Notes under the pieces: model-generated | Database searches by the model: none | What the model was told of the DNA's origin: nothing | What the model saw: only the letters and a program-made list of their open reading frames with translations | NCBI GenBank assembly: GCA_963794325.1 | Contig: CAWCDG010000003.1 | Coordinates: 64,001 to 128,000 of the forward strand | Direction: 5' to 3' | Source: an uncultured delta proteobacterium | GTDB taxonomy: Bacteria; Desulfobacterota; Binatia; Binatales; Binataceae | DNA length: 64,000 nt | Translations under genes and position numbers: made by a program | Shown here: positions 4,401-52,343 of the stretch, one piece after another | How positions within the stretch are numbered: position 1 is the first letter of the stretch | Layout of the letters: each line of letters starts with the position of its first letter

Positions 4401-4802
4401 GGTGTGATCTTCGATTGCTATCTCTGTCTGGCTGAGGCTCAGTCCCTGGAAGGCAACCTCGATGACGCCTTGGTGACGATCGAAGAAACGCTCCAGCTAA
4501 ATCCTCAGGAAGTAGTAATGAGGCCCGAGTTGCTTCGGGTGCGTGGCGAACTCAATCAGAAGCTTGGTCATCTCGATGAGGCGGAGTCGGACCTACGCGA
4601 GGCGATCTCGCGTTTGCAGAAGATGGGCGCGAAACTGTGGGAACTTCGCGCGACCACCAGCCTCGCGAGGCTGCTGCGCGATCGCAATCGTCGCGACGAG
4701 GCTCGCATGATGCTCGCCGACATCTACAACTGGTTCACCGAAGGCTTCGACACCGCCGACCTCAAGGACGCCAAGGCTCTGCTCGCCGAATTGAGCGGCT
4801 AA
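1485..4802 (+). CDS. Double zinc-ribbon / class III adenylate-guanylate cyclase / AAA (STAND) ATPase / TPR protein
   Basis: N-terminal CxxC pairs, [11 protein letters not shown] and GDGIFALLG cyclase motifs, Walker [10 protein letters not shown]-terminal [11 protein letters not shown]. Confidence 0.92.
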
Positions 4803-14215: not shown

Positions 14216-14899
14216 ATGCGTCGATTCAGCATTAACCTCTGCGCGCTGGCGGCATCGGCGGCGATGCTCGCGATAGTCGCGACCTCGCAGAACGCGCATT
14301 GCACCGACCTCACGACGCCGTCGTTCCTGGTCGCGACGCGCGACTTGCAGGACCCGGCGTTTCAGCACTCGGTAATCCTGATGGTGCCATCGACCGAGCC
14401 GCCGCTGCTCGCCGGCCTGATCATAAACAATCCGGCTAAACAGCGGGTTCGAGATTTGTTCCCGCAAGGACGCGATCTGAAGCGCCCGCAGGATACGATT
14501 TACACCGGCGGCCCGGTCGAGCCCGACCAGGTGTCGGTGATTTTCCGGGCGTCATCGGCGCAAAGCTCCGCCACGCGGGTCTTCGATGACGTTTACGTCG
14601 CGAACGGACGCGACGCGATTGCCGCGGTCTTCAAGGATCCGCGGATCACCGATTTCCGCGTTATTTCAGGAAAGGCGCAGTGGCTTCACGATCAACTGCT
14701 GGGCGAGGTCATGGCCGGCGCCTGGTACGTGATTCCCGCGAAGGCGGATCTGATTTTCAGCGACCCAAAAGACCTTTGGGCGACCCTCGTCAAGGGCGGC
14801 GATCTGCAGGAAGCCCAAGCTGGACAGGCTCTTGAGATGAATTTGCCTTATAGGCTCTTGGATGGTACATACTGGCAGCGTCAAATCTCACCCAATTGA
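14216..14899 (+). CDS. YqgE/AlgH family protein with N-terminal signal-like sequence
   Basis: FLVA..DPAFQHSVIL, GLIIN, YTGGPV, AQW..QL..E...GAW. Confidence 0.85.
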   Translation: MRRFSINLCALAASAAMLAIVATSQNAHCTDLTTPSFLVATRDLQDPAFQHSVILMVPSTEPPLLAGLIINNPAKQRVRDLFPQGRDLKRPQDTIYTGGPVEPDQVSVIFRASSAQSSATRVFDDVYVANGRDAIAAVFKDPRITDFRVISGKAQWLHDQLLGEVMAGAWYVIPAKADLIFSDPKDLWATLVKGGDLQEAQAGQALEMNLPYRLLDGTYWQRQISPN

Positions 14900-14955
14900 T
14901 TGGGAACGCGGTTGATCCTGCGCTGCGCGAGAAGCACACAAGGGGAACCAGATTC

Positions 14956-15384
14956 ATGGCACGGACCAAGGAACGCAGTTTTGGTCAGGTACTTCGCGAC
15001 CGCCGTCGGCAGTTAGACCTCACCCAGGAAGAAGTCGCGCGCCGGATTAAGACTTCGACCCCTTACATCGGGCATCTCGAATCGGCCAAGCGCCACCCGT
15101 CGGACAAAATCGTCACGCGTCTGGCCGAGGTGCTCGGACTGGATCGGCGGGAGCTATTCTTCCTCGCCAACCCGCGGGCGCATGCACTCCTCAATCCCGA
15201 GCCGCACACAGACGCGAAGTCGGCGTGGGAAAATTTTCGCCAGGATGAGCAGATGCGGCGGGTTCACAACATCACTGCCGACGAGATGGAAATGCTCGAG
15301 CGCGTCGCGCTGCTCGGCGAAGTCCGCTCGCCCCGCGACTTCATCTATATTCTGAACACAGTCCGCCACGCCGTCGGCAGATAG
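14956..15384 (+). CDS. XRE-family HTH transcriptional regulator
   Basis: FGQVLRDRRRQLDLTQEEVA..YIGHLESAKRHPS..LAEVLG plus a helical C-terminal domain. Confidence 0.9.
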   Translation: MARTKERSFGQVLRDRRRQLDLTQEEVARRIKTSTPYIGHLESAKRHPSDKIVTRLAEVLGLDRRELFFLANPRAHALLNPEPHTDAKSAWENFRQDEQMRRVHNITADEMEMLERVALLGEVRSPRDFIYILNTVRHAVGR

Positions 15385-22579: not shown

Positions 22580-22921
22580 CTATCTTTTTGAACTTGTCAA
22601 TCCCAACGCCGTGCGCAACTTGCCCTTGAGCAGCAAAATTAGCTTGTCTTCCCAGCAAACGTAATTGTCGGGTACGTCGAGCACCACGACTTTTTCCGCG
22701 TGCACCTCGCCGAATCGCTCGCGAATATGTCGGCGATGCGCCTCCTCCATCACGCAAATCACGTCCGCTTCTTCGACCAGCTCGATGCTCACCTGATTCT
22801 TGGCCCACGGCTCCGTCCCCGCCGAGGTAACCCACATCGGCGCACACATCTCCGCCAACACCATCGCCGCCGTCGGACTGCGATCCATATTCCCGGTACA
22901 AACCATCAACACTTTTTTCAT
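22580..22921 (-). CDS. Low-molecular-weight protein tyrosine phosphatase family
   Basis: VCTGNMDRS CX5R motif, SAGT and LDVPD. Confidence 0.88.
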   Translation of the reverse strand: MKKVLMVCTGNMDRSPTAAMVLAEMCAPMWVTSAGTEPWAKNQVSIELVEEADVICVMEEAHRRHIRERFGEVHAEKVVVLDVPDNYVCWEDKLILLLKGKLRTALGLTSSKR

Positions 22922-26018: not shown

Positions 26019-27611
26019 CTATCGATATACGGATACTTCTTCCCGCTCCGCGGCTCCGGCCGCTGCACTCGATCTCAATCCCGCCGCAATCCACCTCCTC
26101 GATTCCGCCGGATCGATCACGTCATCAACCCCGAAATGCGACGCATTGTTAATCGCCTTCCCGCGCTGATACATCGTCGCGACCATCTCATCGAATCGCT
26201 TCTTGCGCGCCGCCGGCTCCGCAATCGCCGCCAGCTCATTGCGATACCCAAGCTTCACCGCGCCCTCGAGTCCCATCGGCCCGAACTCACCCGTCGGCCA
26301 CGCCACCGTGAACATCGGCGCATCGTAACTCCCGCCAGCCATCGCAATCCCGCCGAGTCCATATGCCTTGCGCAGCACGATCGTGAAAAACGGCACCGTC
26401 GCATTCGCCGCCGTAAGAAACATCCGCGACGAATGCCGCACCAGCGCGGTCTTCTCGATTTCGGGCCCAACCATGATTCCCGGCGTGTCGCACAAAAACA
26501 AAATCGGCACGTCGAACGCATCGCACAACTGGATAAACCGCGCGCCCTTGTCCGCGCCGTCACTGTCAATCGCGCCCGCCAGATGCTTCGGATTATTCGC
26601 GACGACGCCGAACGGATGCCCCTCGATTCTCACAAACGCCGCGATCATCGTCAGCCCGAAGTCGCGCCGAATCTCGAGCACCGACCCCGTGTCAGCCATC
26701 GTCTCGATCACGTCGCGCACGTCGTAAACCCGTAGTCGATTCTCCGGAATGATATTTCGCAGTATGCGTTGATCCGCACAGCTCCATTCCTTCACCGCGC
26801 CCTGAAAGTACGACAGATATTTCCTCGCGACCTTCACCGCCTCCGCCTCGTCCTCGACCGCGATATCCACGACCCCGTTCGGCACCTGCACTTCCATCGG
26901 CCCGATTTCCTCGGGACGAAAGATGCCGAGCCCGCCGCCTTCGATCATCGCCGGCCCGCCCATCCCGATATTCGATCGCTTGGTCGCGATCACGACGTCG
27001 CAGCATCCCAGCAACGACGCGTTGCCCGCATAGCACCGCCCCGACGTGATTCCGACCAGCGGCACCAGCCCGCTCAGCTTCGGAAAATCATGAAACGATC
27101 GCGAATTTTGAAAACCGCCGTCAGTATCTCCCGGACGCCCGCCGCCGCCTTCCGCGAACAGCACCAGCGGCAATCGCAGTTCGCGCGCAATCTGGAACAT
27201 CCGATCTTTCTTGCGATGGTTCTGATGCCCCTGCGTCCCGGCCAGCACCGTGTAGTCGTACGACATCACGACGCATCGCGACCGCTCCGCGCCGAACAGA
27301 TTTCCATTGACCGTCGCGAGCCCGGTGACCAGCCCGTCCGCCGGCGTATTCTTGATCAGGTCCTCAATCGTGCGACGCCTTCGCTGCGCCGCTACGACGA
27401 TCGGCCCGTACTCGACGAACGTCCCCGCGTCGCACAAATCCTCGATATTCTCGCGCGCCGTCCGCTGCCCCGTCTTCCTCCGACGCGCCACCGCGTCAGG
27501 CCGCGCCGCATCGAGCCCAACCTCATGCCGCCCGATCACCTCCGCAAGGTCAGCCCGCACAATCTCGATATCTTTATTTCGTGATGCCACGTTTGGTGGA
27601 TAATACTTCAA
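26019..27611 (-). CDS. Acyl-CoA carboxylase carboxyltransferase domain (probably 5'-truncated)
   Basis: YDYTVLAGTQG, AEGGGGRPGD, DTPGIMVG and RKAYG. Weak TTG start. Confidence 0.85.
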   Translation of the reverse strand: MKYYPPNVASRNKDIEIVRADLAEVIGRHEVGLDAARPDAVARRRKTGQRTARENIEDLCDAGTFVEYGPIVVAAQRRRRTIEDLIKNTPADGLVTGLATVNGNLFGAERSRCVVMSYDYTVLAGTQGHQNHRKKDRMFQIARELRLPLVLFAEGGGGRPGDTDGGFQNSRSFHDFPKLSGLVPLVGITSGRCYAGNASLLGCCDVVIATKRSNIGMGGPAMIEGGGLGIFRPEEIGPMEVQVPNGVVDIAVEDEAEAVKVARKYLSYFQGAVKEWSCADQRILRNIIPENRLRVYDVRDVIETMADTGSVLEIRRDFGLTMIAAFVRIEGHPFGVVANNPKHLAGAIDSDGADKGARFIQLCDAFDVPILFLCDTPGIMVGPEIEKTALVRHSSRMFLTAANATVPFFTIVLRKAYGLGGIAMAGGSYDAPMFTVAWPTGEFGPMGLEGAVKLGYRNELAAIAEPAARKKRFDEMVATMYQRGKAINNASHFGVDDVIDPAESRRWIAAGLRSSAAAGAAEREEVSVYR

Positions 27612-27613
27612 AA

Positions 27614-27682
27614 TCCGCGCGCGACAACGGAGCGCGGCCTTAATACTGAAAAAAACGGAGCGCGGCCTTAATACTGAAAAAA
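27614..27682 (+). repeat. 28-bp tandem repeat; a 42-bp copy recurs at 31091-31132
   Basis: AACGGAGCGCGGCCTTAATACTGAAAAA occurs twice. Confidence 0.9.
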
Positions 27683-27683
27683 T

Positions 27684-28346
27684 TCACACGCATCCCCCGA
27701 CCCAGACCACCCGCCCGATTATCTTCACGCTCGGCACCACCATCGATTCGTATTTCGGATTGTCGCTGCGCACCAAAATCTTCCCGTCTGGCCGCCGCTG
27801 GATTCGTTTCACCGTCAGCCCCCCGTCATGCCGCAGCAGGTAGATTCCGTCCTGCCGAAAGCGCGGCTCCGCGAGATCAGCCAGAATCAAATCCGAGTCC
27901 TCAACCGTCGGCGCCATCGAATCGCCAACCACCTCGATCAGAATCAAATCGCGCGGGTCCGCGCGCAGCACCCGCTTCACCCAGTCCGCGCGAAACGCCA
28001 CCGAATCCACCACCTGCTCGCTGCGCATGATCCCCTCGCGCCCAGCCGAGAATCGAATCCGGCTGCGCGGCATGAAAATAAAATCCCCATGCTCGACCGC
28101 CCGCGCGACCGCCTGCCCGCTATGCGATATCTCCTCGCCCGTCGCCAGCCATTCCACCGACACCCGCGCAGCTCGCGCCAGCGCCACCAGGTTCGCCACG
28201 CTCGGCTGTCCCCGCCCCGCTAGCCATTTGTAAATTGCGTTGTCGGATACCCCGACCGCGGTCGCCAGCGCGACTACCGATCCAAAGGACTGAATCACTT
28301 GCGTCAGCCGCGAGCGAAATGCGGCGTCAACCACTGTAGTTGACAT
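27684..28346 (-). CDS. CI/LexA-like repressor (HTH plus S24 peptidase)
   Basis: HTH ..VSVEWLATG, GDSMAP (Ser), VKRI (Lys), IIGRVVW. SD AGGAG. Confidence 0.92.
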   Translation of the reverse strand: MSTTVVDAAFRSRLTQVIQSFGSVVALATAVGVSDNAIYKWLAGRGQPSVANLVALARAARVSVEWLATGEEISHSGQAVARAVEHGDFIFMPRSRIRFSAGREGIMRSEQVVDSVAFRADWVKRVLRADPRDLILIEVVGDSMAPTVEDSDLILADLAEPRFRQDGIYLLRHDGGLTVKRIQRRPDGKILVRSDNPKYESMVVPSVKIIGRVVWVGGCV

Positions 28347-28622
28347 AAATCTCCTAATGTGAAATAAGATTCTTAAAGCGCATGTTCCCGCCTCAAGCAA
28401 ACCGCTCTCAAGTTAAACGCCGGCCTCCCCCGCCGCATGCCTACCTCGATGCGCGCCTCCCCCGCACCTCTCCGCGACTACACATCTTTAGCTCAGTTCG
28501 CCACCTTGTGCCCGCCACGCCCCGGATTTCTCTCCTTAGCCCCGTCGTTCTTTCCGATCTGCTCCGATCGTTTTCATCATCGACGCACCACCGGTTTCCC
28601 ACCCAACTCGCGCGGAGGATTT

Positions 28623-28847
28623 ATGGAACCCGCGATCTCTCCGGTTCGTCCCAGTAGTAGTTCTGGCCGCCTGGTCTCCTGTCTGTGGTGTCATGGGGAC
28701 ACCACCCAAGCCGAGATCATTCGCAACCACGGTCTGTGTCCAGGCTGCGTTCACGACAATGTCGAGCTCAGTTGGCGGGTGATTTACGATCGCGATCGCA
28801 AAATCGGCGCGGTGCCGGCCAATCTTCGGGTTGCGTACGGGTTATGA
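28623..28847 (+). CDS. Small zinc-finger protein
   Basis: SD GGAGG, CLWC and CPGC. ATGA-coupled to the next gene. Confidence 0.65.
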   Translation: MEPAISPVRPSSSSGRLVSCLWCHGDTTQAEIIRNHGLCPGCVHDNVELSWRVIYDRDRKIGAVPANLRVAYGL

Positions 28848-29341
28848 ACGTCGCGGCCAATCGGATGCCCGCGCTCGGGCGCGCGATGTCGCCGGAGCCG
28901 CGTTTCAATCCGTTCGTGGTCGCGATGCGCCACACGCTTTACGATCAGATCGGCGATTCAATCGGCGCCGACGCGGCCGACCGGCTGATCGCCGACTTCG
29001 GCGGGCGTCGATTGTATATCCCGATCGCGCCTGCGCGCGGCGATTTGATCACGCGCTCGATTGGATTGCTCGCGGCGCTCACGATGGCGCGAGCATTCGG
29101 CGGCGACCGCATCCTGATTCCGGCCACTTGCAGTCATGCGCGCCGCCGCGCGCGCATCGTGATGCTGCGCGCTGAAAACGTCAGCATCTCGCACATCGCA
29201 CGCGAGCTCCGATGCACCGAGCGCTACGTTTACAAAGTCCTCGCCCTATGCCGCGCCGCCAAACCCTCTGATTCCCCCTCAAAAACGTCCGCGCCGATCG
29301 CAGAGCGATTGAGACGTGGACATATCAACCGCCGCTCCTGA
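28844..29341 (+). CDS. Mor/C-like phage transcription activator
   Basis: FGGRRLYIP and FGGDRILIP, with C-terminal HTH SISHIARELRCTERYVYKVL. Confidence 0.75.
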   Translation: MNVAANRMPALGRAMSPEPRFNPFVVAMRHTLYDQIGDSIGADAADRLIADFGGRRLYIPIAPARGDLITRSIGLLAALTMARAFGGDRILIPATCSHARRRARIVMLRAENVSISHIARELRCTERYVYKVLALCRAAKPSDSPSKTSAPIAERLRRGHINRRS

Positions 29342-29430
29342 CCCTCTCCCAGTGGGGCGGGCCGCCGTGCCCGCCCTCCGCTGTCGCCAGCTTTTCACGC
29401 CCGAGCCAGAGGCCGCATAGACACTGAAAA

Positions 29431-29688
29431 ATGAAAAAAGCCTTCTACAAATCCAAAGCATTCTACGGATGCGTCAGCACGATCGTTTTGATCGTCGGCG
29501 ACATGGCAGCCAACGGCGCGACGCTCGGCAACATGACGGCGCTGATGACGGCGGGGTTTGCGCTCTACGGCCGTATCGTCGCGACCGCGCCGCTCGCGAT
29601 CAGCGACCAATCCGAGGCTGACGTCGAGGAGGCAAAGGCAGATGTACGCAAAAGCAAAGTTGCGGTTGACGCTGACCATGGGAATTAG
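29431..29688 (+). CDS. Putative holin-like membrane protein
   Basis: KAFYKSKAFY start, two hydrophobic segments ending LYGRIVA, and a charged tail. Confidence 0.55.
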   Translation: MKKAFYKSKAFYGCVSTIVLIVGDMAANGATLGNMTALMTAGFALYGRIVATAPLAISDQSEADVEEAKADVRKSKVAVDADHGN

Positions 29689-29983
29689 CGTGTTAGCCGC
29701 GGGATGCGCGCCGACTTTCGAGTCGCATATCGACTCGCCGCCGGCAATATCACCTCAGATCGCGACGCAATGCACGTCCACTGAAAAACTGGCGGCGCTG
29801 GATCCCAAACCGCAATTACCGGATGCGGATCAATCGCCATGTCCCGATGGAAGTGGATTGGCCGCATGTTTCACGCATGACCAGGACGCGATACGCCAGA
29901 ATCGTTTCAAGATTCTTCACGACGATCGCGACTACTGCCGCGACGCGTATGAGAGGGCGGTGAAACATGTTGCGGGGGATTGA
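29642..29983 (+). CDS. Lipoprotein (o-spanin-like position)
   Basis: MYAKAKLRLTLTMGISVLAAGC lipobox, Pro/Cys-rich, overlaps the holin-like gene. Confidence 0.6.
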   Translation: MYAKAKLRLTLTMGISVLAAGCAPTFESHIDSPPAISPQIATQCTSTEKLAALDPKPQLPDADQSPCPDGSGLAACFTHDQDAIRQNRFKILHDDRDYCRDAYERAVKHVAGD

Positions 29984-30434
29984 GGTGGAGGCGAAGAACC
30001 TAACCCCTAACCCCTTCCCTCGAGGGAAGGGGAACAATCGCGGGCACGGCGGCCCGCGCCACTGGTTCCGATCTATCCGGTTCCCCTTCCCGTGCGGGAA
30101 GGGGTTAGGGGTTAGGTTCCTCTATTCCACCGCAATCCTGATCTCGATCCTCCCCTTCGCCGCATCGTGCTCCCAGGTCCACGAAAAAATGTTCACCCTC
30201 GATTGTGCCATCGGGCGCGCGCCGCTCGCGGGCGAGCTGGCGCCGGGCACCGCGATGGCGCTGGACGTCTCGACCAGCCCGATCCCGCTGCTCTCGCCGT
30301 CGCATCGCGCGATCGCGCGATGCGACAGCGCCGGCGTCGTCACGATGGATATCGAAACCCCAATCGACACCGGCCTGAGCCAGCTATCGACGCCCTTAAG
30401 CACTGCCGCCGCCCACATAACTTATGTGCCATGA
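29967..30434 (+). CDS. Putative lipoprotein with an in-frame REP doublet in its N-region
   Basis: Reads through repeats 29997-30118 into ILISILPFAASC. Confidence 0.5.
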   Translation: MLRGIEVEAKNLTPNPFPRGKGNNRGHGGPRHWFRSIRFPFPCGKGLGVRFLYSTAILISILPFAASCSQVHEKMFTLDCAIGRAPLAGELAPGTAMALDVSTSPIPLLSPSHRAIARCDSAGVVTMDIETPIDTGLSQLSTPLSTAAAHITYVP

Positions 30435-30573
30435 AAACAAAAAGCGGAGGCAGAATCTTGAATCGCGCGCGAAAGATGCGCGCTGGACAAGGTCCCTCTC
30501 CTTAAATCCTCTCCCGACGGGAGAGGGGAAGAACAGAAACAAAACGCCCGCGCATCTAAAAGGTGACACTCAC

Positions 30574-31018
30574 ATGAGTTCAAAGATCCGAAACGTTCTA
30601 GTAGGACGCAATTTATTGCGTCGTCTGACTTTCTGCGCCCTCGCTCTCGTCTCTCTCTGCATGCGCCCAGCAAGGCGGCGGCCTCCTGCAGCCGACTCCG
30701 AAACAGATCATCAGCGGCAAAAACACAATCGTGCCCAGCGCCGCCGCGCTAAGCATGGAGGCGACCAACTTCTGCAACGCACAAGCACAGGTCGATTACG
30801 CGGGCCTGGTCCTATACTGCGAAGGTAAGACTCCCGCGCTGCCGCTATCGATTAACACCACCTATCAGACCGAGAGCAATCAGTTCTCATGCCAGGTGTA
30901 CGGCTACACCAATTCGAGCAATCAGTTAATCGTCCCGCAGACGGTGACGCTGGGTAACTGTCCGATTGGCACAGCGCCCGCACCTGTGACGGCTCCATCA
31001 GGAGCGGTGAAGAGTTAG
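30574..31018 (+). pseudogene. Lipoprotein frameshifted at a (CT)n run near 30655
   Basis: Adding one CT unit gives ..LALVSLSAC-AQQGGG.. continuous with ORF 30731-31018. Confidence 0.55.
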
Positions 31019-31316
31019 GTGAGTAATGGCATATAGCAACCTAACCCCTAACCCCTTCCCTCGAGGGAAGGGGAACAATCGCGCACGAGGTCCGCGCGCG
31101 AGAACGGAACGCGTCCTTAATACTGAAAAAAAGGGGTCACCCCCAACCATCCGGTTCCCCTTCCCGCTCGGGAAGGGGTTAGGGGTTAGGTTCCACTATT
31201 CAACCGCAATCCTAATCTTCGGGAGGGGGTTAAGCTTCCTGCGATTGTTCCCCTTCCCTCGAGGGAAGGGGTTAGGGGTTAGGTTCCTCAAGCCTGAAAC
31301 TCCAGGAGCGATCTGA

Positions 31317-31619
31317 TTGGAACTAGGCAATGCCGCCGGATGGGCCGCCGCTTTTGTCGCCTTCGTTGCTGTCAATGCCAGCACAATCCAATGGCTGCTG
31401 AAGCGGCGCGACGATCAGCGTGAACGCGACTCCAGCCGGGTGACCGATCTGGAAGACGCGCTCACTGAATTGCGGGTGAGCATGCCGCTCGAGTACGTGC
31501 GCCGCGAGGACTGGATCAGATTCAGCGGCACCTTGGACGCGAAGTTGGATGCGATGCGCGAAGAAGTACGCGAACAGATTGGCGAAGTAAAGGAAAGGCT
31601 ATATGCCGGACGCAATTGA
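31317..31619 (+). CDS. Mu-like phage membrane-anchored coiled-coil protein
   Basis: N-terminal TM segment and MPLEYVRREDW; lies upstream of the gp26-like gene. Confidence 0.7.
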   Translation: MELGNAAGWAAAFVAFVAVNASTIQWLLKRRDDQRERDSSRVTDLEDALTELRVSMPLEYVRREDWIRFSGTLDAKLDAMREEVREQIGEVKERLYAGRN

Positions 31620-31917
31620 CCTTGAACAAAAGAATCGCGAGGAAGCGCGCTGGCGGATGCTGCGCGTGGTTGACGCGGGCCGTCCGATAGCCGTCTCCGA
31701 GCAGATAGTCTGGCGGGTGCTCGCCGATATCAAGCTGTCGCTATCGCTCAACACCGTGCGCCGCGAACTCTCCTACCTGCGCGACCTGGGACTTATCGAA
31801 CTCGAAGGCGAGGACGCGGAAACCTGGTTCGCGAAGTTGACCGCCAACGGCGTCGACGTCGTCGAGTACACCTCCGCATCACCGGCCGGCATCGCCCGCC
31901 CGCGCAAATACTGGTGA
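31603..31917 (+). CDS. Mu gp26-like winged-helix protein
   Basis: RRELSYLRDLGL..AKLTANGVDVV..GIARP. Confidence 0.75.
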   Translation: MPDAIDLEQKNREEARWRMLRVVDAGRPIAVSEQIVWRVLADIKLSLSLNTVRRELSYLRDLGLIELEGEDAETWFAKLTANGVDVVEYTSASPAGIARPRKYW

Positions 31918-31927
31918 GGCGCGCGCG

Positions 31928-32545
31928 ATGAAGAAAAAGAGCGAGGCCAAGAAAAAGAAACCCGCCGCGCACCCAAAGCGCGTGCCGATAGATCCGATTC
32001 CGTTCAAGACGTGGAAGATAAAAAAGTTGCCGCCGGATTTGAAGGAACAACTCGATCGGATGCTTACCGAAGGCACGTTGCATAGCTGCCGGCAGCTCGC
32101 CAAGTGGCTGGGAGACAATGGGTTCGAGATCTCGCACGCGGCGATTCACAAGTACGGGCAGAAGTTCGAGCGGCGGCTCGAGGCGGTCCGGATAGCGACG
32201 GAACAGGCGCGAATCGTTTGCGAAGAATTCAAGGACGATGACGAGCGGATGCAGAGTGCGCTGATGAGGCTGGTGCAGACGCGGTTGTTTGAAGTGCTGT
32301 CGGCTACCAGCGAATCGGAGCCGAAGAGTGAGAATGATGAAGGGACGAGGGTCGCGCCGGTGAATGTCACGGCGCTGGCACGCAGCGTGTCGGGACTGGC
32401 AAGGGCCGAAACCGAGCATCGCAAATGGGCGGAGCGGGCGCGGGCGAATGTGGCGGAGGCGGAGAAGAAGGTGGATGAGGCGCGCAGTAAAGGATTGAGC
32501 AAGGATGCGGCGGAGCAGATTAAGGCAGTGTTGTTGGAGATTTAG
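31928..32545 (+). CDS. Mu gp27-like (DUF3486) putative terminase small subunit
   Basis: KIKKLPPDLK..GFEISHAAIHKYGQ..GLSKDAAEQIK..L. Confidence 0.85.
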   Translation: MKKKSEAKKKKPAAHPKRVPIDPIPFKTWKIKKLPPDLKEQLDRMLTEGTLHSCRQLAKWLGDNGFEISHAAIHKYGQKFERRLEAVRIATEQARIVCEEFKDDDERMQSALMRLVQTRLFEVLSATSESEPKSENDEGTRVAPVNVTALARSVSGLARAETEHRKWAERARANVAEAEKKVDEARSKGLSKDAAEQIKAVLLEI

Positions 32546-32583
32546 GGGGATGCCATCAGAGTCGCGAGCGATGGCCGCATTAA

Positions 32584-32817
32584 TAACCTCCCCTTGTCCG
32601 AGGGGAGGTCGGCGAAAGCCGCTTGAAAAGCGGTGTCGCCGGGAGGGGTGCAACGTGCGACACCCCACCAACGCCGACTCGTCTAATCTCAATGCAGAGA
32701 AACTCGTTCGCTGTTCGACAGCAGCACAACGCGCATTGTTGCGACTGTCCAGCGTTGCACCACTCCCGTCGCTCACCTTCGGCTCGCGCCGACCTCTCCT
32801 CGGACAAGGAGAGGTTA
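32584..32817 (+). repeat. About 230-bp nested inverted-repeat element (family E), copy 1
   Basis: 31-bp TIR TAACCTCCCCTTGTCCGAGGGGAGGTCGGCG with an inner IR; homologous to 34419-34648. Confidence 0.9.
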
Positions 32818-32851
32818 GGAACGGACGGAGCAGCAACCAAAAACTAACTAA

Positions 32852-34375
32852 ATGAACGAACCACTCTCAATACTACTTCCCTATCAACGGCGATGGCTCG
32901 CCGATCAATCGCAAGTCAAAGTCAGCGAGAAATCGCGGCGGATCGGGATCACCTGGACCGAGGCTGCTGACCGCGCCCTGGGCGCCGCTACCAGCGGACG
33001 CGCCGGACTCGACGGATGGTATATCGGGTACAACAAGGACATGGCGCTCGAGTTTATCGAGGCCGCCGCGCGATGGGCGCGACGCTTCAACCGGGCCGCC
33101 GAAACTATCGAGGAGCTTGTCCTCGACGACGAGCGCAGCGCTATCCTCGCGTACCGAATCCGGTTCGCATCAGGGCACAAAATCGTTGCGCTGTCGTCGC
33201 GGCCTTCAAATCTCCGCGGCAAGGACGGATGCGCGGTGATCGACGAAGCCGCGTTCCATGAAGACCTGCCCGGACTGCTGAAAGCGGCGCTCGCATTCAC
33301 GATGTGGGGCGGATTGGTGCGGATAATCAGTACTCACAACGGCGCGCATAATGCCTTCAATGAACTAGTCAGTGAGATTCGGGCGGGCCGGAGGCCATAC
33401 TCACTCCATCGTACGACATTCGACGAGGCGCTGGCCGACGGCCTATACAAAAAAATCTGCGAGCAGACCGAAACCGAGTGGAGCGAAGAGAAGCAGCGCG
33501 AATGGCGTCAGCAGATTGTCGATTACTACGGCGACAACGTCGGCGAAGAACTTTTCTGTATCCCGCGCGCGTCGTCGGGCGCGTACCTGAGCTCGGTTCT
33601 GATCGAAGCGCGAATGAAAGCCGGAATTCCTATCCTGCGATGGGAGATGCCGGCGGAATTTTCAGGGCGTCCGGAGGCGGATCGATACGCGGAGACCCAG
33701 GCGTGGTGCGAGGACAATATCGCACCGGCTCTCATCGCACTCGATCCGGCGCGCGCGAGTTTCTTCGGCGAAGACTTCGGCCGTTCCGGAGACCTGACGG
33801 TAATCTGGCCGCTCCAAATCGATAAGGACCTGACCCGGCGGACCCCATTCGTAGTCGAGCTGCGCAATATCCCGTTTCGAAATCAGGAGCAGGTGCTCTT
33901 TTATATTATCGACCGCCTGCCGCGCTTCACGACCGGAGCGATGGACGCGCGCGGCAACGGACAATATCTCGCCGAGACCGCGGCGCAGCGTTACGGCGCG
34001 CGAATCGCGCAGGTGATGCTGTCGGAGGCGTGGTACCGCGAAAATATGCCGCGCTACAAGGCGGCGTTCGAGGATGGCACGATCGAGATTCCAAAGGACG
34101 CCGATGTTTTGTCGGACCATCGCGCGATCACGCTCGAGAACGGCGTCGCAAAAATTTCAGATCGCCGCGCCGTCATCGACGGCAAGGGCCGCCACGGCGA
34201 CTCGGCGATGGCCGCGGCGCTGGCTTTCTACGCCTCGCGCGCAGAGGTGGGAGCTATCGCGTACACCGCAGTGAGGAAAGCAGAGACGAGAAACATATAC
34301 GACGGCGCCGGGAATCCGTTTGGGGCGGCGCCGGTCGATGATGAGATGGCAGGTGGGAGGGTGAGGGGATTTTGA
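32852..34375 (+). CDS. Mu gp28-like terminase large subunit
   Basis: EKSRRIGITW Walker A, IDEAAF Walker B, and GEDFGRSGD / DARGNG / HGDSA nuclease motifs. Confidence 0.92.
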   Translation: MNEPLSILLPYQRRWLADQSQVKVSEKSRRIGITWTEAADRALGAATSGRAGLDGWYIGYNKDMALEFIEAAARWARRFNRAAETIEELVLDDERSAILAYRIRFASGHKIVALSSRPSNLRGKDGCAVIDEAAFHEDLPGLLKAALAFTMWGGLVRIISTHNGAHNAFNELVSEIRAGRRPYSLHRTTFDEALADGLYKKICEQTETEWSEEKQREWRQQIVDYYGDNVGEELFCIPRASSGAYLSSVLIEARMKAGIPILRWEMPAEFSGRPEADRYAETQAWCEDNIAPALIALDPARASFFGEDFGRSGDLTVIWPLQIDKDLTRRTPFVVELRNIPFRNQEQVLFYIIDRLPRFTTGAMDARGNGQYLAETAAQRYGARIAQVMLSEAWYRENMPRYKAAFEDGTIEIPKDADVLSDHRAITLENGVAKISDRRAVIDGKGRHGDSAMAAALAFYASRAEVGAIAYTAVRKAETRNIYDGAGNPFGAAPVDDEMAGGRVRGF

Positions 34376-34418
34376 GGGACTTTATTGAATGTGAAACACA
34401 ATTGGGACTTCCGATTCC

Positions 34419-34648
34419 TAACCTCCCCTTGTCCGAGGGGAGGTCGGCGAAAGCCGCGCAGCGGTGTCGCCGGGAGAGGTGCAAAGTGCGACACCCCACC
34501 AACGCCGACTCGTCTAATCTGAATGCAGAGAAACTGGTTCGCTGCTCGACGGCAGCACAACGGGCATTGTTGCGACAGTCCCACCTTGCACCCCACCCGT
34601 CGCACTCCTTCGGCGTGCGCCGACCTCCCCTCGGACAAGGGGAGGTTA
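34419..34648 (+). repeat. Family E element, copy 2
   Basis: Same TIRs and nearly identical internal spacer as copy 1. Confidence 0.9.
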
Positions 34649-34841
34649 GGATCGGTCCGGATGAAATGCGTAGATGAATAGCTACTGGAGATGGAAGTGC
34701 GAAGAGTGCGGGTACGAGTTCTTGCTCGCGCTCATCCGATTGCCACGACCGTGCCATCGATGCGGCGGCGAATGGTTTCTAAAGATTGGCGAGGCGGCGA
34801 CAAAAGAGTATCGAACTGACTAGTCCGCTTGGAGTAATTCA

Positions 34842-36227
34842 ATGACACTCTATGATGCTTATGGACGCGAAGTAGATACCGGCATGTTGCGCCAGGAGCA
34901 GGCGGCTCCGACGATGGCGGGCGTCCGAAATATATATTCCGTGATGCATCCGTCAATCGGACTGACGCCGGAGAACTTGTCGCGAATCTTGCGGGAGGCC
35001 GAGTTCGGGGATCCCTATCTGTATCTCGAACTCGCCGAGGAGATGGAGGAGAAGGACCTTCATTACCTCGCCGTACTCGGAACTCGCAAGAATGCGGTCG
35101 CGCAACTCGACGTGATCGTGCGGGCGGCGTCGAGTGGAGCAGAAGATCAACGCGCGGCGGCGATGGTGCGCGAGATGATCTGCGACGGCCCGATACAGCT
35201 CGACAGCGTCCTGTTCGACGTGCTCGACGCGGTGGGAAAGGGATTTTCGGCGACCGAGATAATGTGGAATACCACTGGGCGCCAATGGTTTCCCGCGCAA
35301 TTGAAATGGCGCGACCCGCGCTGGTTCGCGTTTGACTGGATATCCGGTGAGGAAATCCTGGTGCGCACCTTGAAAGGCGAAATGGTCCCGGTCGCCAACG
35401 GCAAATCGCCCGCCCGCCCGACCCATTTCGGCGGCGACGGAATACACTCGTCGATGAATCCCGGAATCGGGATGCAGCCGATGACCGCGCCTCTGACCCC
35501 ATACAAGTTCATCACGCATTTCGCCAAGGCCAAAGCGGGCCTGCCGATACGCGGAGGCCTCGCGCGCGCGGCCGGGTGGGCGTACCTGTTCAAGAACTAC
35601 GTACTAAAGGACTGGGTAACGTTCACTGAGGTATTCGGACAACCACTGAGGGTGGGCAAATACCATCCCGGCGCGTCGGAACAGGATAAACAGGCATTAC
35701 TCAATGCAGTATCGCGAATAGGCACTGATGCGGCGGCGATAATGCCGGAGTCGATGGTAATAGAGTTCACCGAGGCGCATCAGGATGGTAGTTCGGAATT
35801 GTATCAGAGATTTTGCGAATACTTAGATGCGCAGGTGAGTAAGGCAGTGCTCGGGCAGACACTTACTACTGAAATGCCTAATGGAGGAGGGTCGCGAGCC
35901 GCCGCGCAAGTACATGACGCGGTCCGTCGCGACATCCTGAATGCCGACGCGCGGCGATTGGCGGCGACGCTGGCGCGAGACCTGGTGCGTCCGATCGTCG
36001 AGCTGAATATGGGGCCGCAAAAACAATATCCGAGGATCGAGTTGGGGCTGCCGGATGACAGCGACGTGAAAGTGTTTGCGGAGGTTGTCGCGATGCTGGC
36101 GGATCGAGGGTTGAGAGTGGGGCAGAAGGCAGTGCTCGACAAGTTGGGGATCGCGCAGGCGGAGAAGGGGGAAGCGGTGCTCAGGGCGATTGGGGGGGAT
36201 GGGGGAAGGGGAGATCACTTGATTTGA
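34842..36227 (+). CDS. Mu gp29-like portal protein (DUF935)
   Basis: EEMEEKD.H, GFSATEI.W, FGQPLRVGKY, SKAVLGQTLT and SRAAAQVH..VR.D. Confidence 0.92.
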   Translation: MTLYDAYGREVDTGMLRQEQAAPTMAGVRNIYSVMHPSIGLTPENLSRILREAEFGDPYLYLELAEEMEEKDLHYLAVLGTRKNAVAQLDVIVRAASSGAEDQRAAAMVREMICDGPIQLDSVLFDVLDAVGKGFSATEIMWNTTGRQWFPAQLKWRDPRWFAFDWISGEEILVRTLKGEMVPVANGKSPARPTHFGGDGIHSSMNPGIGMQPMTAPLTPYKFITHFAKAKAGLPIRGGLARAAGWAYLFKNYVLKDWVTFTEVFGQPLRVGKYHPGASEQDKQALLNAVSRIGTDAAAIMPESMVIEFTEAHQDGSSELYQRFCEYLDAQVSKAVLGQTLTTEMPNGGGSRAAAQVHDAVRRDILNADARRLAATLARDLVRPIVELNMGPQKQYPRIELGLPDDSDVKVFAEVVAMLADRGLRVGQKAVLDKLGIAQAEKGEAVLRAIGGDGGRGDHLI

Positions 36228-36385: not shown

Positions 36386-37188
36386 TCAGGGTTTTGTGCC
36401 GGTTCGTTTTCTTTGGCGGCGGGCTCTGCGGCGGTGTTTCATCTCTAAGAAGATGTCGTCGTAGATGAGTTTTCGGATTGCGAAGCCGGAAGTGGGGAAG
36501 TGGACTGCAGAGTCGGTGGGGGAGCGGCGGTAGCGATAGAGCTGGATGCCGTTCCACCAGGTGGGCGAGTGGTTGCGCGGGGTGCGTAGATCAAGAATCA
36601 GTTTGAAGTTGGCGAGAGCGCGCGCGATGAGATTGTTGGCGGAGCGGGCGGCGCGCTTGTTGGTGTCGTCGATGATGACTACTGCGTCGTCGGCCAAGTG
36701 CTGGATGGCGAGGGCGAGACCGTCGTACTGATCGCGAAAGGAGTGGCCGCCGTCGTAGAAGTAGGCGCCGATGCGGGCGGGACGCCATGGCGCGGCGTCG
36801 AGGAAGTCGCGGAAATCCATGTCGTGGAAGGTGACTTGGCCCACTGCGGTGTGCTCGTCGAGGGTGCGGCGGAGCGCGTCGGCGGCGCCGTCGAACTGCG
36901 AAAAATTGTCGCATGCAACGATGCGCGCGTGCGGGTTGGAGGTCGCGGCGCCGACCAGGCTCGCCCCTTTATAGCATCCGACTTCAACGTAAACTTCGCC
37001 CTCGTCGAGCGATGCGACGGCGGAATTGAGCAGGCGCAGCTTGTTCTCGGTGGCCATCCCGGGAATTTCGTCGAGGATGTGGGAGAGCGAGCGATCGAAG
37101 CGGGATGGGTCGAGCGGGCGAGGCGTCGCGAGTCGGCAAATTCGGGCCATTGCGCGCGGCATCGCTCGAGGAAATCGTCAAACTTCAT
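36386..37188 (-). CDS. Class I SAM-dependent methyltransferase (Methyltransf_24-like), frameshift near 37125
   Basis: YVEVGCYKGAS, YFYDGGH and IIDD. The N-terminus MKFDDF is in another frame. Confidence 0.8.
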
Positions 37189-37224: not shown

Positions 37225-37725
37225 TTACCAATACATCCCGGGGCCCATCGGGCCGACGAGGCCCATGCCGTACGGATTGAACATCTCTTCCTGCTCCTCC
37301 ATATCCTGCATCTGGATGGCTTCGAGGTTCTCGCGGGAGAGCTCGCCCTCCTTGGCCTGGAACTGCTGGTTGAGTTTCAATTTTTCGTACTGCTGATAAT
37401 TTTCCTCGGTGCCGATGTACATGCATTTACAGAAATTCGGATCGGCCATGTAGTAGTGCAGGGTGCCGGTCTTGCCGACGTAGTAGTTGACGTCGAATGG
37501 AACCAGCGACGCGAGTTGCTGCTGGCGCTGGGGAGTGTCCGCGGGGAGCATCCGGAAGCCGGCCGCCGCGAGCATCGGCTCGACCTGCTCGGCCTGCTGC
37601 TCGGGGGTCGGCGGCTCCGGCGGTTTTATCGAACCGCATCCGGCGAGCGCGACGGAGAATGCGGTAAGCATTAGGATGAGGATGGTCGAGGCGGTCGGGC
37701 GTCGCGGTATCAGTTCGTTATTCAC
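37225..37725 (-). CDS. Hypothetical lipoprotein
   Basis: LAGC lipobox, LAAAGF and CKCMYIG. Confidence 0.75.
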   Translation of the reverse strand: MNNELIPRRPTASTILILMLTAFSVALAGCGSIKPPEPPTPEQQAEQVEPMLAAAGFRMLPADTPQRQQQLASLVPFDVNYYVGKTGTLHYYMADPNFCKCMYIGTEENYQQYEKLKLNQQFQAKEGELSRENLEAIQMQDMEEQEEMFNPYGMGLVGPMGPGMYW

Positions 37726-37762
37726 TTTTCGCTTTTCACTTTTTCAATCGAGCGATGCGGAG

Positions 37763-37792
37763 AAAAGAAAGGGCGGCCGTCGCGGGCCGCCC
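37763..37792 (-). terminator. Rho-independent terminator
   Basis: GGGCGGCC stem followed by TTTCTTTT on the minus strand, downstream of ORF 37806. Confidence 0.6.
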
Positions 37793-37805
37793 CATCGGGC
37801 GTAAA

Positions 37806-38468
37806 TCAGGGGACGGAGTTGACTGGATTGCCAGTGGCGTCGAACAAGGTCAGCGCGCCGGCGCCGTCAGAGTTCAGCGTGAGCGAGGCGCGGGTCTTGC
37901 CGTCGGTGCCGATCAGGGCGAGGCCGGGGCGTCCGTCGGGCGTGAGATCCATGCCGATGCGGCCGCGGTGGTCGTCGCCCAGGCGCAAGGTCGGAGTGCC
38001 GTCGGTGGCGACGATGATCGAGGCGCGCGGATTGCCGGCTTTGTCCATCAGACCGATACCGGACTGGCCGTCGGGGGCGACGCCGAGGGTGGCCTGCGGG
38101 CTCGCATTCTCGTCGAACAGAACGACGCGGGCGACGCCGTGGGTGAGGCCGACTTCGATGCGCGGCTTGCCGTCGTGGCCATAGATGCCGAGCGCCGGGG
38201 CGCCGTCGGAGCCGACGCCGAGTCCGGCGCGGAGCGCGCCGGTCCCATCGAAGACCGCGAGTTGCGCGACGCCTTTGTTGGACACGTCGAACGCGCCTCG
38301 GGTCTTGCCGCGGGCGTCGACCAGCATGAATTTCTGCGCGGTGATCATTCGGGGCGCGTTGGCCGCGTCGACGGTGCGCGTGGCGAAGAAATGGCCGGAC
38401 ACGGCGCCTCCGATGAATGCGGCAGCAAGAGTCAGGGTGACAAACCCGATTCGCTCTTTGATGGTCAT
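37806..38468 (-). CDS. Exported protein with about 22-aa beta-hairpin repeats
   Basis: Signal-like N-terminus and a repeating LGV..DG.P.L.L.D..G..R unit. Confidence 0.75.
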   Translation of the reverse strand: MTIKERIGFVTLTLAAAFIGGAVSGHFFATRTVDAANAPRMITAQKFMLVDARGKTRGAFDVSNKGVAQLAVFDGTGALRAGLGVGSDGAPALGIYGHDGKPRIEVGLTHGVARVVLFDENASPQATLGVAPDGQSGIGLMDKAGNPRASIIVATDGTPTLRLGDDHRGRIGMDLTPDGRPGLALIGTDGKTRASLTLNSDGAGALTLFDATGNPVNSVP

Positions 38469-38785
38469 GGTCGCGGTCTCCTTTCCAGTGCCGAGGTTAG
38501 GGCAATTTTCGGGGTGAAGATTAGCAGTTGGAGGCGGAAAGGAAAAATCGGGAAAGTGGCGCGGCAGAGGTGGGCGAATTCACGTGATTGAATGTGAAAT
38601 CAGCGGTGGGTTTCACGCTTCCTTCGGCAGGGGTGACCCCTGCACCCGGTGAATCGCGAAATGTCGAGGACGACCTTTCGCTCTCAGGTTCTTTTTTTCT
38701 GTGTCGTCTTGCGTATGGAAGTTTGGCCGCTCACTATCAGGCTTGAGAAAATCGCCTGCGTGATGCCTTGAAAGTGGGGCTGGAA

Positions 38786-51414: not shown

Positions 51415-52343
51415 ATGAACAAGAAAGTTGAAGCTGGCAAGCCGCTTTGCACTCAGCCCAATATTACACTCGCTCAATTGATGAAGCAGTTCAGCGATGA
51501 GACCGCGTGCAAAACCCTGTTGCGCGATATGCGCTGGCCGGATGGCGTCGAATGCCCGCGCTGTAAGAGCAAGAAGGTGTACGCTCTCGCATCCAAGCCG
51601 TGGCATTGGGTCTGCAAGAACAAAGATTGCGGCGGACGCAACGGCTATCGCTTCAGCGTCATCACCAAAACCATCTTCGAGAATACGAACTATCCGCTCT
51701 CGACTTGGTTTCAGGTGATCTACCTGATGACTCAGAGCAAGAAAGGAATCAGCGCACTGCAAATCCATCGACAGATTGGATCGGGCGATTACCGCACAGC
51801 GTGGTATATGGTCATGCGCATTCGTGCTGCGATGAAAGATGACGGACTGGCAAAGTTGCTCGGCACCGTTGAGGTTGACGAAACTTACATCGGCGGCAAA
51901 GAGAAGAATCGCCACTTCGGACAAGAAGCAGGGCGGACGCGGCACGACTGGAAAGATTCCCGTCATCGGCGCGATCTCGCGTAAGGGTAACGTCGTCTGC
52001 AAGATGATCGAAAACACCGATACGGAAACGCTCACTCGATTCGTGCGCGATACCGTCAGTGATAAGGTGAAGCTGGTCGCGACCGATGAGCACGCGGGCT
52101 ATCGCTACCTGAAATGGGCGATGCCGCATGAAGTCGATCAAGCACAGCGAGAATGAATACGTGCGCGGCGAGGTCCATACCAACAGCGTCGAATCGTTCT
52201 GGTCGCTGCTCAAGCGCGGAGTGCTCGGCACGTACCATAACGTGAGCAAAAAGTATTTGCCGCTCTATCTCGCGGAGTTTCAGTATCGCTTCAACAATCG
52301 CGACAACAAGAATATTTTCTTCGACGTGATAGCAGGATGCTGA
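51415..52343 (+). CDS. IS1595 transposase (frameshifted)
   Basis: RWPDG..CPRC zinc ribbon, VEVDETYIGG, TDE..GY, HTNSVESFW and YLAEFQYRFN spread across frames. Confidence 0.9.

Follow-up and report, generated by a model that had tools for sequence, protein, structure and literature searches.

A Mu-type phage-derived element without a transposase, probably a domesticated or long-maintained prophage, in the Binataceae

Control, lysis and packaging genes at the locus

We examined a 64-kb stretch of contig CAWCDG010000003.1 from an uncultured member of the Binataceae (the whole stretch is called the window below), which carries a group of phage-type genes at 27.6-36.2 kb. This region is the left arm of an ancient element derived from a Mu-type myovirus, and it comprises control genes, the remnant of a lysis block and DNA-packaging genes. 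The gene map is based on the listing of open reading frames (ORFs), on Pfam, PHROGs and NCBIfam matches and on direct reading of the sequence across the window. The repressor, zinc-finger ORF, Mor activator, holin-like gene, lipoproteins, gp27, gp28 terminase and gp29 portal named in the original prediction were all found where it had placed them. The features are as follows.

26019-27611, minus strand: host carboxyl transferase, the left flank of the element
27614..27686: repeat unit between the carboxyl transferase and the repressor stop, with two direct 26-nt copies (27629-27654 and 27657-27682)
27684-28346, minus strand: cI/LexA-type repressor, 220 aa (HTH_3 1.3e-8, Peptidase_S24 8.4e-21, phrog_4 2.5e-44)
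28347..28622: control region from which the repressor and the Zn-ribbon ORF diverge, containing conserved non-coding islands
28623-28847, plus strand: Zn-ribbon ORF, 74 aa, CxxC...CxxC, from sequence reading
28844-29341, plus strand: Mor/C-family late-gene activator, 165 aa (PF08765 3.8e-10, phrog_836 1.1e-18)
29343..29427: scar in place of the GH108 endolysin gene of relatives, from comparison with relative L015
29431-29688, plus strand: holin-like small hydrophobic membrane ORF, 85 aa, from sequence, kept in Binatus loci
29642-29983, plus strand: lipoprotein 1, 113 aa, lipobox LAAGC, from sequence reading and relatives
29977..30138: pair of host palindromic repeat units, CCCCTTCCC-N4-GGGAAGGGG plus TTAGGGGTTAGG
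30139..30434, plus strand: lipoprotein 2, a signal-peptide-like stretch with a Cys
30574..31018, plus strand: lipoprotein 3, with an apparent frameshift, mature part 30731-31018
31027..31289: host palindromic repeat cluster, from repeat scans
31317-31619, plus strand: membrane/coiled-coil ORF in the "gp25" position, 100 aa, TTG start (phrog_462 8.5e-13)
31603-31917, plus strand: ORF in the "gp26" position, 104 aa (phrog_436 1.9e-27)
31928-32545, plus strand: Mu gp27-family protein (PF11985 4.7e-36, phrog_426 9e-38, "terminase small subunit")
32579-32824: copy 1 of an element resembling a miniature inverted-repeat transposable element (MITE), 246 bp, terminal inverted repeats of about 38 nt
32852-34375, plus strand: TerL, the large terminase subunit, 507 aa (phrog_2 4.8e-32)
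34414-34655: copy 2 of the MITE-like element, about 90% identical to copy 1
34674-34823, plus strand: Zn-ribbon mini-ORF, 49 aa, conserved between TerL and the portal
34842-36227, plus strand: Mu-type portal, 461 aa (PF06074 3.5e-102 over the full model, phrog_113 7e-130)
36386-37162, minus strand: Methyltransf_24 protein, right-hand neighbor
37225-37725, minus strand: lipoprotein, right-hand neighbor, conserved downstream of the portal
37806-38468, minus strand: membrane protein, right-hand neighbor, conserved downstream of the portal

The left edge of the element adjoins a host gene after 72 bp of repeats. As had been claimed, nothing of a transposition module lies at the left end, where the Zn-ribbon ORF is the sole gene between the repressor and Mor; the same order of repressor followed by Mor was found in the approximately 49 related loci that carry both. 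Likewise, the predicted absence of gp30, protease, capsid and tail genes after the portal extends over the entire window, in which we found no phage-type transposase, protease, capsid or tail homologs. The name "gp26", which had been given to the ORF upstream of gp27, is backed by its PHROG match and its position and by nothing further, although the ORF itself is present.

The repressor contains a Peptidase_S24 domain with GDSM and a downstream Lys, so that control of the element is predicted to be damage-inducible. The stop codon of the Zn-ribbon ORF overlaps the Mor start (ATGA), and the two are thus predicted to be translationally coupled. The Zn-ribbon ORF has no Pfam or PHROG match and gives tblastn matches in 40 loci in addition to the window. 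In an alignment of 19 Binatus sequences the divergent control region contains three conserved islands, beside the repressor start, in a middle block (CTACACATCTTTAGCTCAGTTCGCGACC-like) and at the ribosome-binding site and start of the Zn-ribbon ORF, and the remainder is variable. A scan for promoter and terminator consensus sequences gave nothing above shuffles.

The packaging genes are well preserved. TerL shares 57% identity with BcepMu gp28 across 88% of its length and keeps the motifs KSRRIGIT, VIDEAAF, STHNG, GEDFGRSGD and HGDSA, which are invariant; the repressor retains GDSM and VKR. We take these to be the catalytic motifs of the two proteins, and on this basis the frames and catalytic motifs are intact, as the original prediction held. 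The gp27-family protein is, from its family matches, likely the small terminase subunit. The portal is 41-45% identical to its best phage matches, which include Rhodobacter phage RC1 and Rhodovulum phage RS1. In 73 of 78 sequences TerL, and in 79 of 81 the portal, yielded a high-scoring segment pair (HSP) that spans 85% or more of the reference without a stop. TerL falls short of this in L002, where it is split, in L011, at a contig edge, in L073, where it is partial, and in L036 and L070, each with one stop inside the HSP; the portal does so in L028 and L067, again with one stop each. Of the 78 sequences with both TerL and the portal, 51 carry the Zn-ribbon mini-ORF between the two genes (MNSYWRWKCEECGYEF...CHRCGGEWF), essentially the whole of the clade with split loci described below, and a CxxC-pattern search did not find it in the clade with contiguous loci. 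A small ORF likewise lies between TerL and the portal in phage RC1. Neither the TerL sequence nor its profile matched any PDB chain, and an AlphaFold2 model from a 9-sequence alignment (mean pLDDT, the predicted local distance difference score, of 48) was too poor for fold comparison.

The gaps between these genes had been attributed to host palindromic repeats, and the repeats are real: 0 shuffle matches are expected for each pattern of the three families. The 26-nt repeat of the left edge has a third copy at 31106-31131, and the palindromic CCCCTTCCC-N4-GGGAAGGGG units lie between lysis-block genes as well as at the host intergenic sites 23048, 24631, 25534 and 42166 and in 22 loci. Host repeats alone can nevertheless be ruled out as the content of the gaps among the packaging genes. 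The gap of 306 bp between gp27 and TerL is occupied by the 246-bp MITE-like element, and the gap of 466 bp between TerL and the portal holds the second copy together with the conserved 49-aa Zn-ribbon ORF. Full-length copies with 77-81% identity occupy the gp27-TerL gap of L008 (~7943), L012 (~3023) and L017 (~7880), and the insertion is therefore old or recurrent; a further family member lies at ~20359 in L007. The second copy in the window looks lineage-specific. Other insertions were observed at the gp27-TerL junction, in L001 (2.0 kb), in L029 (2.2 kb, with a DUF559 endonuclease-like ORF) and in L004, L027 and L031-L034 (~1.1 kb). This junction is a recurrent insertion site in many species, beyond the MITE-like element alone.

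Related loci and the displaced head and tail genes

The portal was used as a query on species-representative genomes, where 238 of 267 candidates were confirmed as relatives. The best 80 of the 238, at 64-91% identity, were analyzed as loci (given here by L numbers) over a span of 10 kb on each side of the portal. Their titles name Candidatus Binatus, Binataceae or delta-/proteobacterial metagenome-assembled genomes, with Acidiferrales as the sole exception. The element occupies one locus per genome in all 80 species representatives, and the concern raised beforehand that it might be strain-specific can be set aside. By tblastn with the window proteins, the common order is repressor, Zn-ribbon, Mor, further genes, gp25-like, gp26-like, gp27, TerL and portal. 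Matches were obtained for TerL in 77 of the 80 loci, for the gp26-like ORF in 66, for the gp25-like (phrog_462) ORF and for gp27 in 64 each, for Mor in 53 and for the repressor in 49. The three right-hand neighbors occur in 50-51 loci, with r_MT matched in 51 and r_166 in 50, and the host carboxyl transferase adjoining the repressor matched in 15. Many loci end at contig edges, so that low gene counts are not all true absences. Among the 145 + 63 ORFs neighboring the loci of relatives there was no Pfam match to an integrase or transposase; the Pfam negatives for integrase, transposase and replication genes cover the region left of the repressor and the interior of the element, its far right end being outside the examined span.

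The relatives also reveal what follows the portal. Pfam analysis of seven loci found a full structural set directly after the portal in three of them (L047, L060 and L066), in the order Mu-like protease, a 232-aa ORF, gpT capsid, Gp36, Gp37, tail sheath, tail tube and, later, GpU. Baseplate genes, too, belong to the structural genes that relatives carry after the portal. Upstream of the portal lie a repressor, a DnaA_C-type helix-turn-helix (HTH) protein and Mor (L047, L060), a GH108 endolysin (L047, L066) and gp27 (L060, L066). No gp30-type minor head protein was found between portal and protease in the contiguous relatives. By the distance from portal to protease the 80 loci fall into three classes.

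Contiguous: 12 loci, portal-protease gap of 30-403 bp
Split: 16 loci, five of them in the genus Binatus (L006, L010, L018, L025, L079), gap of 0.9-8.4 kb
No head gene inside the examined flank: 52 loci

The block that separates portal and protease in the split class consists of the methyltransferase, the lipoprotein and the membrane protein, with the clade-dependent addition of genes for a YHS protein, an 866-aa NHL-repeat protein, an ABC ATPase, Kelch and FHA proteins and an amidohydrolase. In L068 the membrane protein stands alone in the portal-protease gap. Where Binatus loci lack head genes, the NHL-repeat gene is in many cases more distant (15.5-20 kb in the locus), so that the head genes may lie just past the examined flank. 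Summed cluster members come to ~430 for the portal (at least 85% identity) and ~460 for the capsid (at least 90%), a crude hand sum that permits no inference on the capsid in individual genomes. None of the window genes past 38468 corresponds to a gene that follows the portal in any other locus, and we therefore conclude that a rearrangement removed whatever came next. The packaging module of the original prediction is thus not a free-standing one. The window instead holds the left arm of a complete head-and-tail element; the right arm adjoins it directly in 12 loci, and in 16 inserted host genes have displaced it. These classes fit a gene cluster that is being pulled apart by insertions between portal and protease.

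The Methyltransf_24 protein, the lipoprotein and the membrane protein to the right of the portal may belong to the element as accessory (moron-like) genes instead of being host genes. In L046, L050, L053 and L059 the methyltransferase and lipoprotein genes are inverted but keep their place after the portal and, wherever a protease is present, precede it. Over the membrane protein gene of the window two ORFs overlap, 37755-38591 (plus strand) and 37806-38468 (minus strand); both have tblastn matches in relatives, and the GC content at third codon positions (0.67 vs 0.86) favors the minus strand. The most distant locus, L080 (7-11503), carries the baseplate genes GPD, Baseplate_J and Tail_P2_I upstream of the portal on the same strand and host genes after it, and TerL was not found in this locus; it is a different rearrangement of the same element.

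Inheritance and selection

In the tree of TerL plus portal (71 rows), 11 contiguous forms fall into one 12-row clade, the twelfth member of which is L068. The forms with the three-gene block of methyltransferase, lipoprotein and membrane protein fall into a separate clade of 50 rows, and the window belongs to a 19-row Binatus subclade. The gene to the left of the repressor is uniform within clades and different between clades: 6 neighbor types over 33 labeled rows require 5 changes on the tree, which is the minimum, where label shuffles required at least 13 (mean 16.6). The chromosomal context of the element is thus congruent with its gene tree. The genes AlgH, HTH and LMWPc (low-molecular-weight-phosphatase-like), which lie left of the repressor in the sister Binatus clade, are found in the window at 14216-15384 and 22580-22921. 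The two groups therefore share a neighborhood, with local insertions or deletions.

Ratios of non-synonymous to synonymous divergence (dN/dS) were calculated by the Nei-Gojobori method as medians over pairs within the genus Binatus, with the following results.

Host carboxyl transferase: dN/dS 0.079, dS 0.46
gp26-like ORF: dN/dS 0.09
Portal: dN/dS 0.104, dS 0.63
TerL: dN/dS 0.106, dS 0.62
Repressor: dN/dS 0.15, from 9 sequences only
gp25-like ORF: dN/dS 0.16
gp27: dN/dS 0.24
Endolysin: dN/dS 0.26
Zn-ribbon ORF and holin-like ORF: dN/dS 0.31
Mor: dN/dS 0.34
Lipoprotein 1: dN/dS 0.37

The repressor reference included an untranslated leader, so that many HSPs were dropped and 9 sequences were left. 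Across the family, head and tail genes have dN/dS of 0.065-0.27, with dS near saturation. In order to describe the branch that leads to the window itself, we counted private changes, defined as codons at which the window departs from its four nearest relatives where these agree; the count is made by parsimony and is not a codon-model test. Over seven genes there are 91 synonymous and 30 non-synonymous private changes, a ratio that ranks 16th of 31 taxa, and 0 changes fall at family-invariant columns; the count gives no sign of relaxed selection on this branch. The packaging genes are under selection as strong as that on the neighboring metabolic gene, including on the window's own branch. The long residence under purifying selection that had been proposed for the module is accordingly borne out, with dN/dS of 0.10 for TerL and portal vs 0.08 for the host gene and with the predominance of synonymous private changes.

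Comparison with known systems and interpretation

The ancestry of the element is Mu-like, as the original prediction stated. The identities of TerL to BcepMu gp28 and of the portal to phages including RC1, whose record contains a transposase, point to it, and so do the families represented, with Mor, Mu Gp27 and Portal_Mu in the window and Mu-like_Pro, Mu gpT, Gp36 and Gp37 in relatives. The RC1 record runs from a cI-like repressor through small ORFs, a transposase, a DNA transposition protein and about fourteen early genes to the late activator, and continues with an endolysin, small ORFs, TerS, TerL, a small ORF, the portal, a minor head protein, the protease, the major head protein and the tail. 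The order in the window agrees with it from activator to portal, except for the endolysin, which is missing. In contrast to RC1, the window lacks the stretch of ~10.6 kb between repressor and activator, including the transposase genes (the distance is ~0.5 kb here), and everything past the portal. Compared with Mu-like prophages in general, Mor and gp27, gp28 and gp29 are present, whereas MuA and MuB are absent between repressor and activator, and no head and tail genes follow the portal in the window. The element further differs from Mu-like phages in having no transposase A/B and no early region, in lacking a gp30-type minor head protein after the portal in contiguous relatives, and in being chromosomally fixed and interrupted by host genes and host repeats.

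Three other kinds of phage-derived system invite comparison. Gene transfer agents and PBSX-type particles package mostly chromosomal DNA. The gene transfer agent of Rhodobacter capsulatus (RcGTA) is siphovirus-like and related to HK97, and described gene transfer agents are run by host regulators. Like RcGTA, the element derives its head, tail and packaging genes from a phage, is inherited vertically under purifying selection, shows no replication or integration genes in the examined span and has genes that drift into separate loci. Unlike RcGTA, it is of independent origin from a Mu-type myovirus and has an SOS-type repressor and a Mor of its own. PBSX of Bacillus, a defective myovirus fixed in the chromosome, carries a repressor of its own and is regarded as damage-inducible; it packages host DNA and lyses the producer. 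The element is likewise a chromosomally fixed, conserved and defective myovirus with its own repressor, but its genes are unrelated, its host belongs to another phylum and the endolysin is missing in the window. With phage satellites such as phage-inducible chromosomal islands (PICIs) it shares a repressor and packaging genes without a full structural set in the same locus. It differs from them in having no Pfam matches to an integrase or to replication genes, in a context that is fixed across species, and in that the full set of head and tail genes stands in line in its relatives; the integrase, replication module and mobility that characterize PICI-like satellites were thus not found. It is not a tailocin, a system without capsid, portal and terminase, since TerL and portal are intact and strongly selected and the capsid is kept in relatives. 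The literature retrieved on Mu-like elements and gene transfer agents is of a general kind and includes a study of the multilocus "genome" of RcGTA (PMC5026251) and a review of recruited mobile elements (PMC8987985).

On this evidence, the element is probably a Mu-type myovirus derivative without a transposase, chromosomally fixed and passed on vertically through the Binataceae under purifying selection, that is, a domesticated or long-maintained prophage. The data fit a loss of transposition before the radiation of the sampled Binataceae, followed by vertical carriage with function kept. A narrower proposal, which we put forward tentatively as a possibility, is that the element represents a gene transfer agent or PBSX-like particle system of the Binataceae not described before, which arose independently from a Mu-type myovirus when the transposition module was lost, is controlled by its own SOS repressor and Mor, and is splitting into separate loci in Binatus through inserted host genes, in the manner of RcGTA.

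Beyond the presence of the genes and the selection on them, we infer each step of how such a system might work, and the ordinary lysogenic switch known from defective prophages seems to us the likeliest scheme. DNA damage would lead to self-cleavage of the S24 repressor, which would free the divergent promoter for expression of the Zn-ribbon protein and Mor, and Mor would in turn activate late-gene transcription. The gp27 protein and TerL could then dock on portal-containing procapsids, the head genes for which would lie more than 28 kb away or at another locus. Headful packaging would follow, mainly of chromosomal DNA, since there is no transposition or replication module to amplify the element, and the particles might resemble a gene transfer agent or PBSX.

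Several observations weigh against a domesticated, working system. The locus has no endolysin, and 0 of 21 head, tail and lysin queries from relatives match anywhere in the 64 kb; together these speak against a working system at this place. In 53 loci Mor is followed by a GH108 endolysin, which forms one intact HSP in 50 of them and is broken in L001, L002 and L042, and the nearest relatives (L015, L004, L003 and L008) retain it, whereas the window has 85 bp (29343-29427) in place of the 515 bp of L015 (3549-4063). Lipoprotein 2 has no canonical start codon nearby, its frame being open from 29967 through the repeats, while its homolog in L001 begins at a GTG codon. The signal peptide of lipoprotein 3 is read in one frame, whereas the lipobox and the mature part require the next, and the gene is intact in L003, L008, L015 and L001. 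The deletion and the apparent frameshift argue against particle release from the window locus as it stands, and particle release in this genome must be considered in doubt. The presumed late operon contains two MITE copies. Unlike described gene transfer agents, the element is controlled by a phage-type repressor of its own. The evidence for vertical inheritance also has weak points. Pairwise dS of the carboxyl transferase and of portal plus TerL correlate with a Spearman coefficient of 0.22, with 118 of 2000 Mantel permutations as high (87 pairs, 14 taxa), which is the weak point in a pattern of vertical inheritance and purifying selection that otherwise agrees with a gene transfer agent; the near-star shape of the subclade gives this test little power. 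The dS of the module (0.62) exceeds that of the host gene (0.46), selection on orthologs would also appear if the element were still infectious, and an integrase or replication module may lie beyond the tail genes. Finally, the relatives are all metagenome-assembled genomes.

Much of this damage would be expected if the locus were an inert remnant, in which a rearrangement severed the head and tail genes, the lysis genes are decaying, and repressor, Mor, TerL and portal are intact merely for lack of time. We consider this unlikely, though the least so of the alternatives. To the deleted endolysin and the two defective lipoproteins it can add the second, lineage-specific MITE copy, the end of synteny after 38468 with no head genes within 28 kb, and the end branch of the window, which is the longest among near neighbors (0.12 vs 0.02-0.07). 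That branch is, however, long in synonymous changes too, and the 91 synonymous against 30 non-synonymous changes, with none at family-invariant columns and a ratio in the middle of the range of 31 taxa, do not suggest decay; the catalytic motifs are all retained. The shift in lipoprotein 3 lies within a (TC)n run near 30650, where read-through restores the ALALVSLSAC-type signal of relatives, and it may be a real mutation or an assembly error.

The clade of 12 contiguous loci raises another explanation, that of a still autonomous lineage of temperate phages that have a Mu-type head and contractile tail, do not transpose and have co-diverged with their hosts, the window being a rearranged or misassembled copy. 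Those loci do resemble a complete prophage with its own repressor, activator, endolysin, head and tail, their left neighbors are not common between loci, their end branches are long (0.14-0.31), and the right end of the element lies outside the examined span. Such a phage is difficult to reconcile with the host-type genes (NHL-repeat, ABC ATPase, Kelch, FHA, amidohydrolase; 0.9-8.4 kb) between portal and protease in 16 loci, with a clade-specific left neighbor that changes the minimum number of times on the gene tree, and with a single locus in each of 80 species representatives. Nor was there an integrase, transposase or replication Pfam match left of the repressor or between repressor and Mor, and we regard this explanation, too, as improbable.

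That the packaging arm is retained for another use, either satellite-like hijacking of capsids from an infecting relative or packaging interference as a defence, is very improbable: conserved regulatory and packaging genes alongside lost lysis genes and unlinked head genes in the window genome (none in 64 kb) would suit it, but no integrase or replication gene as in known satellites was found left of the element or inside it, relatives have kept their head and tail genes linked and under selection, the portal, for which a pure packaging-redirection system has no need, is conserved as well, and a PADLOC scan matched the packaging genes and the three right-hand neighbors to no defence family and gave only two weak matches for the repressor, in its HTH region.

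Under the preferred reading of a chromosomally fixed, vertically inherited prophage derivative, the series of relatives from contiguous loci through loci split by 1-8 kb to unlinked ones would trace how a prophage breaks up step by step into a multilocus system under host control, which makes the route from phage to an organelle-like device of the cell testable by comparative genomics. To our knowledge, only a handful of independent domestications of phages into gene-transfer or killer particles are known, and we know of none described for the uncultured soil phylum that contains Binatus. A full-text literature search, in which subscription journals are not covered, returned no paper on Binatota with a gene transfer agent, and, judged by titles and the opening lines of abstracts, no paper in the Binatia, Binatota, Binatus and prophage literature is about such an element. 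The element is also a target for metavirome work in peat and soil.

Some features of the lysis block and of the remaining sequence complete the description. A 26-nt inverted repeat, in which 29349-29374 pairs with 30040-30065 (96% complementary), flanks the genes for the holin-like protein and lipoprotein 1. Its left arm lies inside the endolysin scar, and the deletion may therefore stem from a repeat-mediated event. The holin-like ORF matches no Pfam or PHROG family, and lipoprotein 1 is possibly spanin-like, as judged from its position. No tRNA and no Rfam family was found in the window. Just past the synteny break, the segment at 39.6-41.1 kb is gene-poor and has a GC dip to 0.52. The rest of the window consists of ordinary metabolism genes and a split transposase. 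A 1105-aa protein at 1485-4802 has partial similarity, under the curated cut-off, to TOMM system kinase/cyclase fusion proteins. The IS1595-family transposase at 51415-52343 is distributed over two ORFs (189 + 71 aa) where GC is low (0.48-0.52); it probably represents a decayed insertion sequence.

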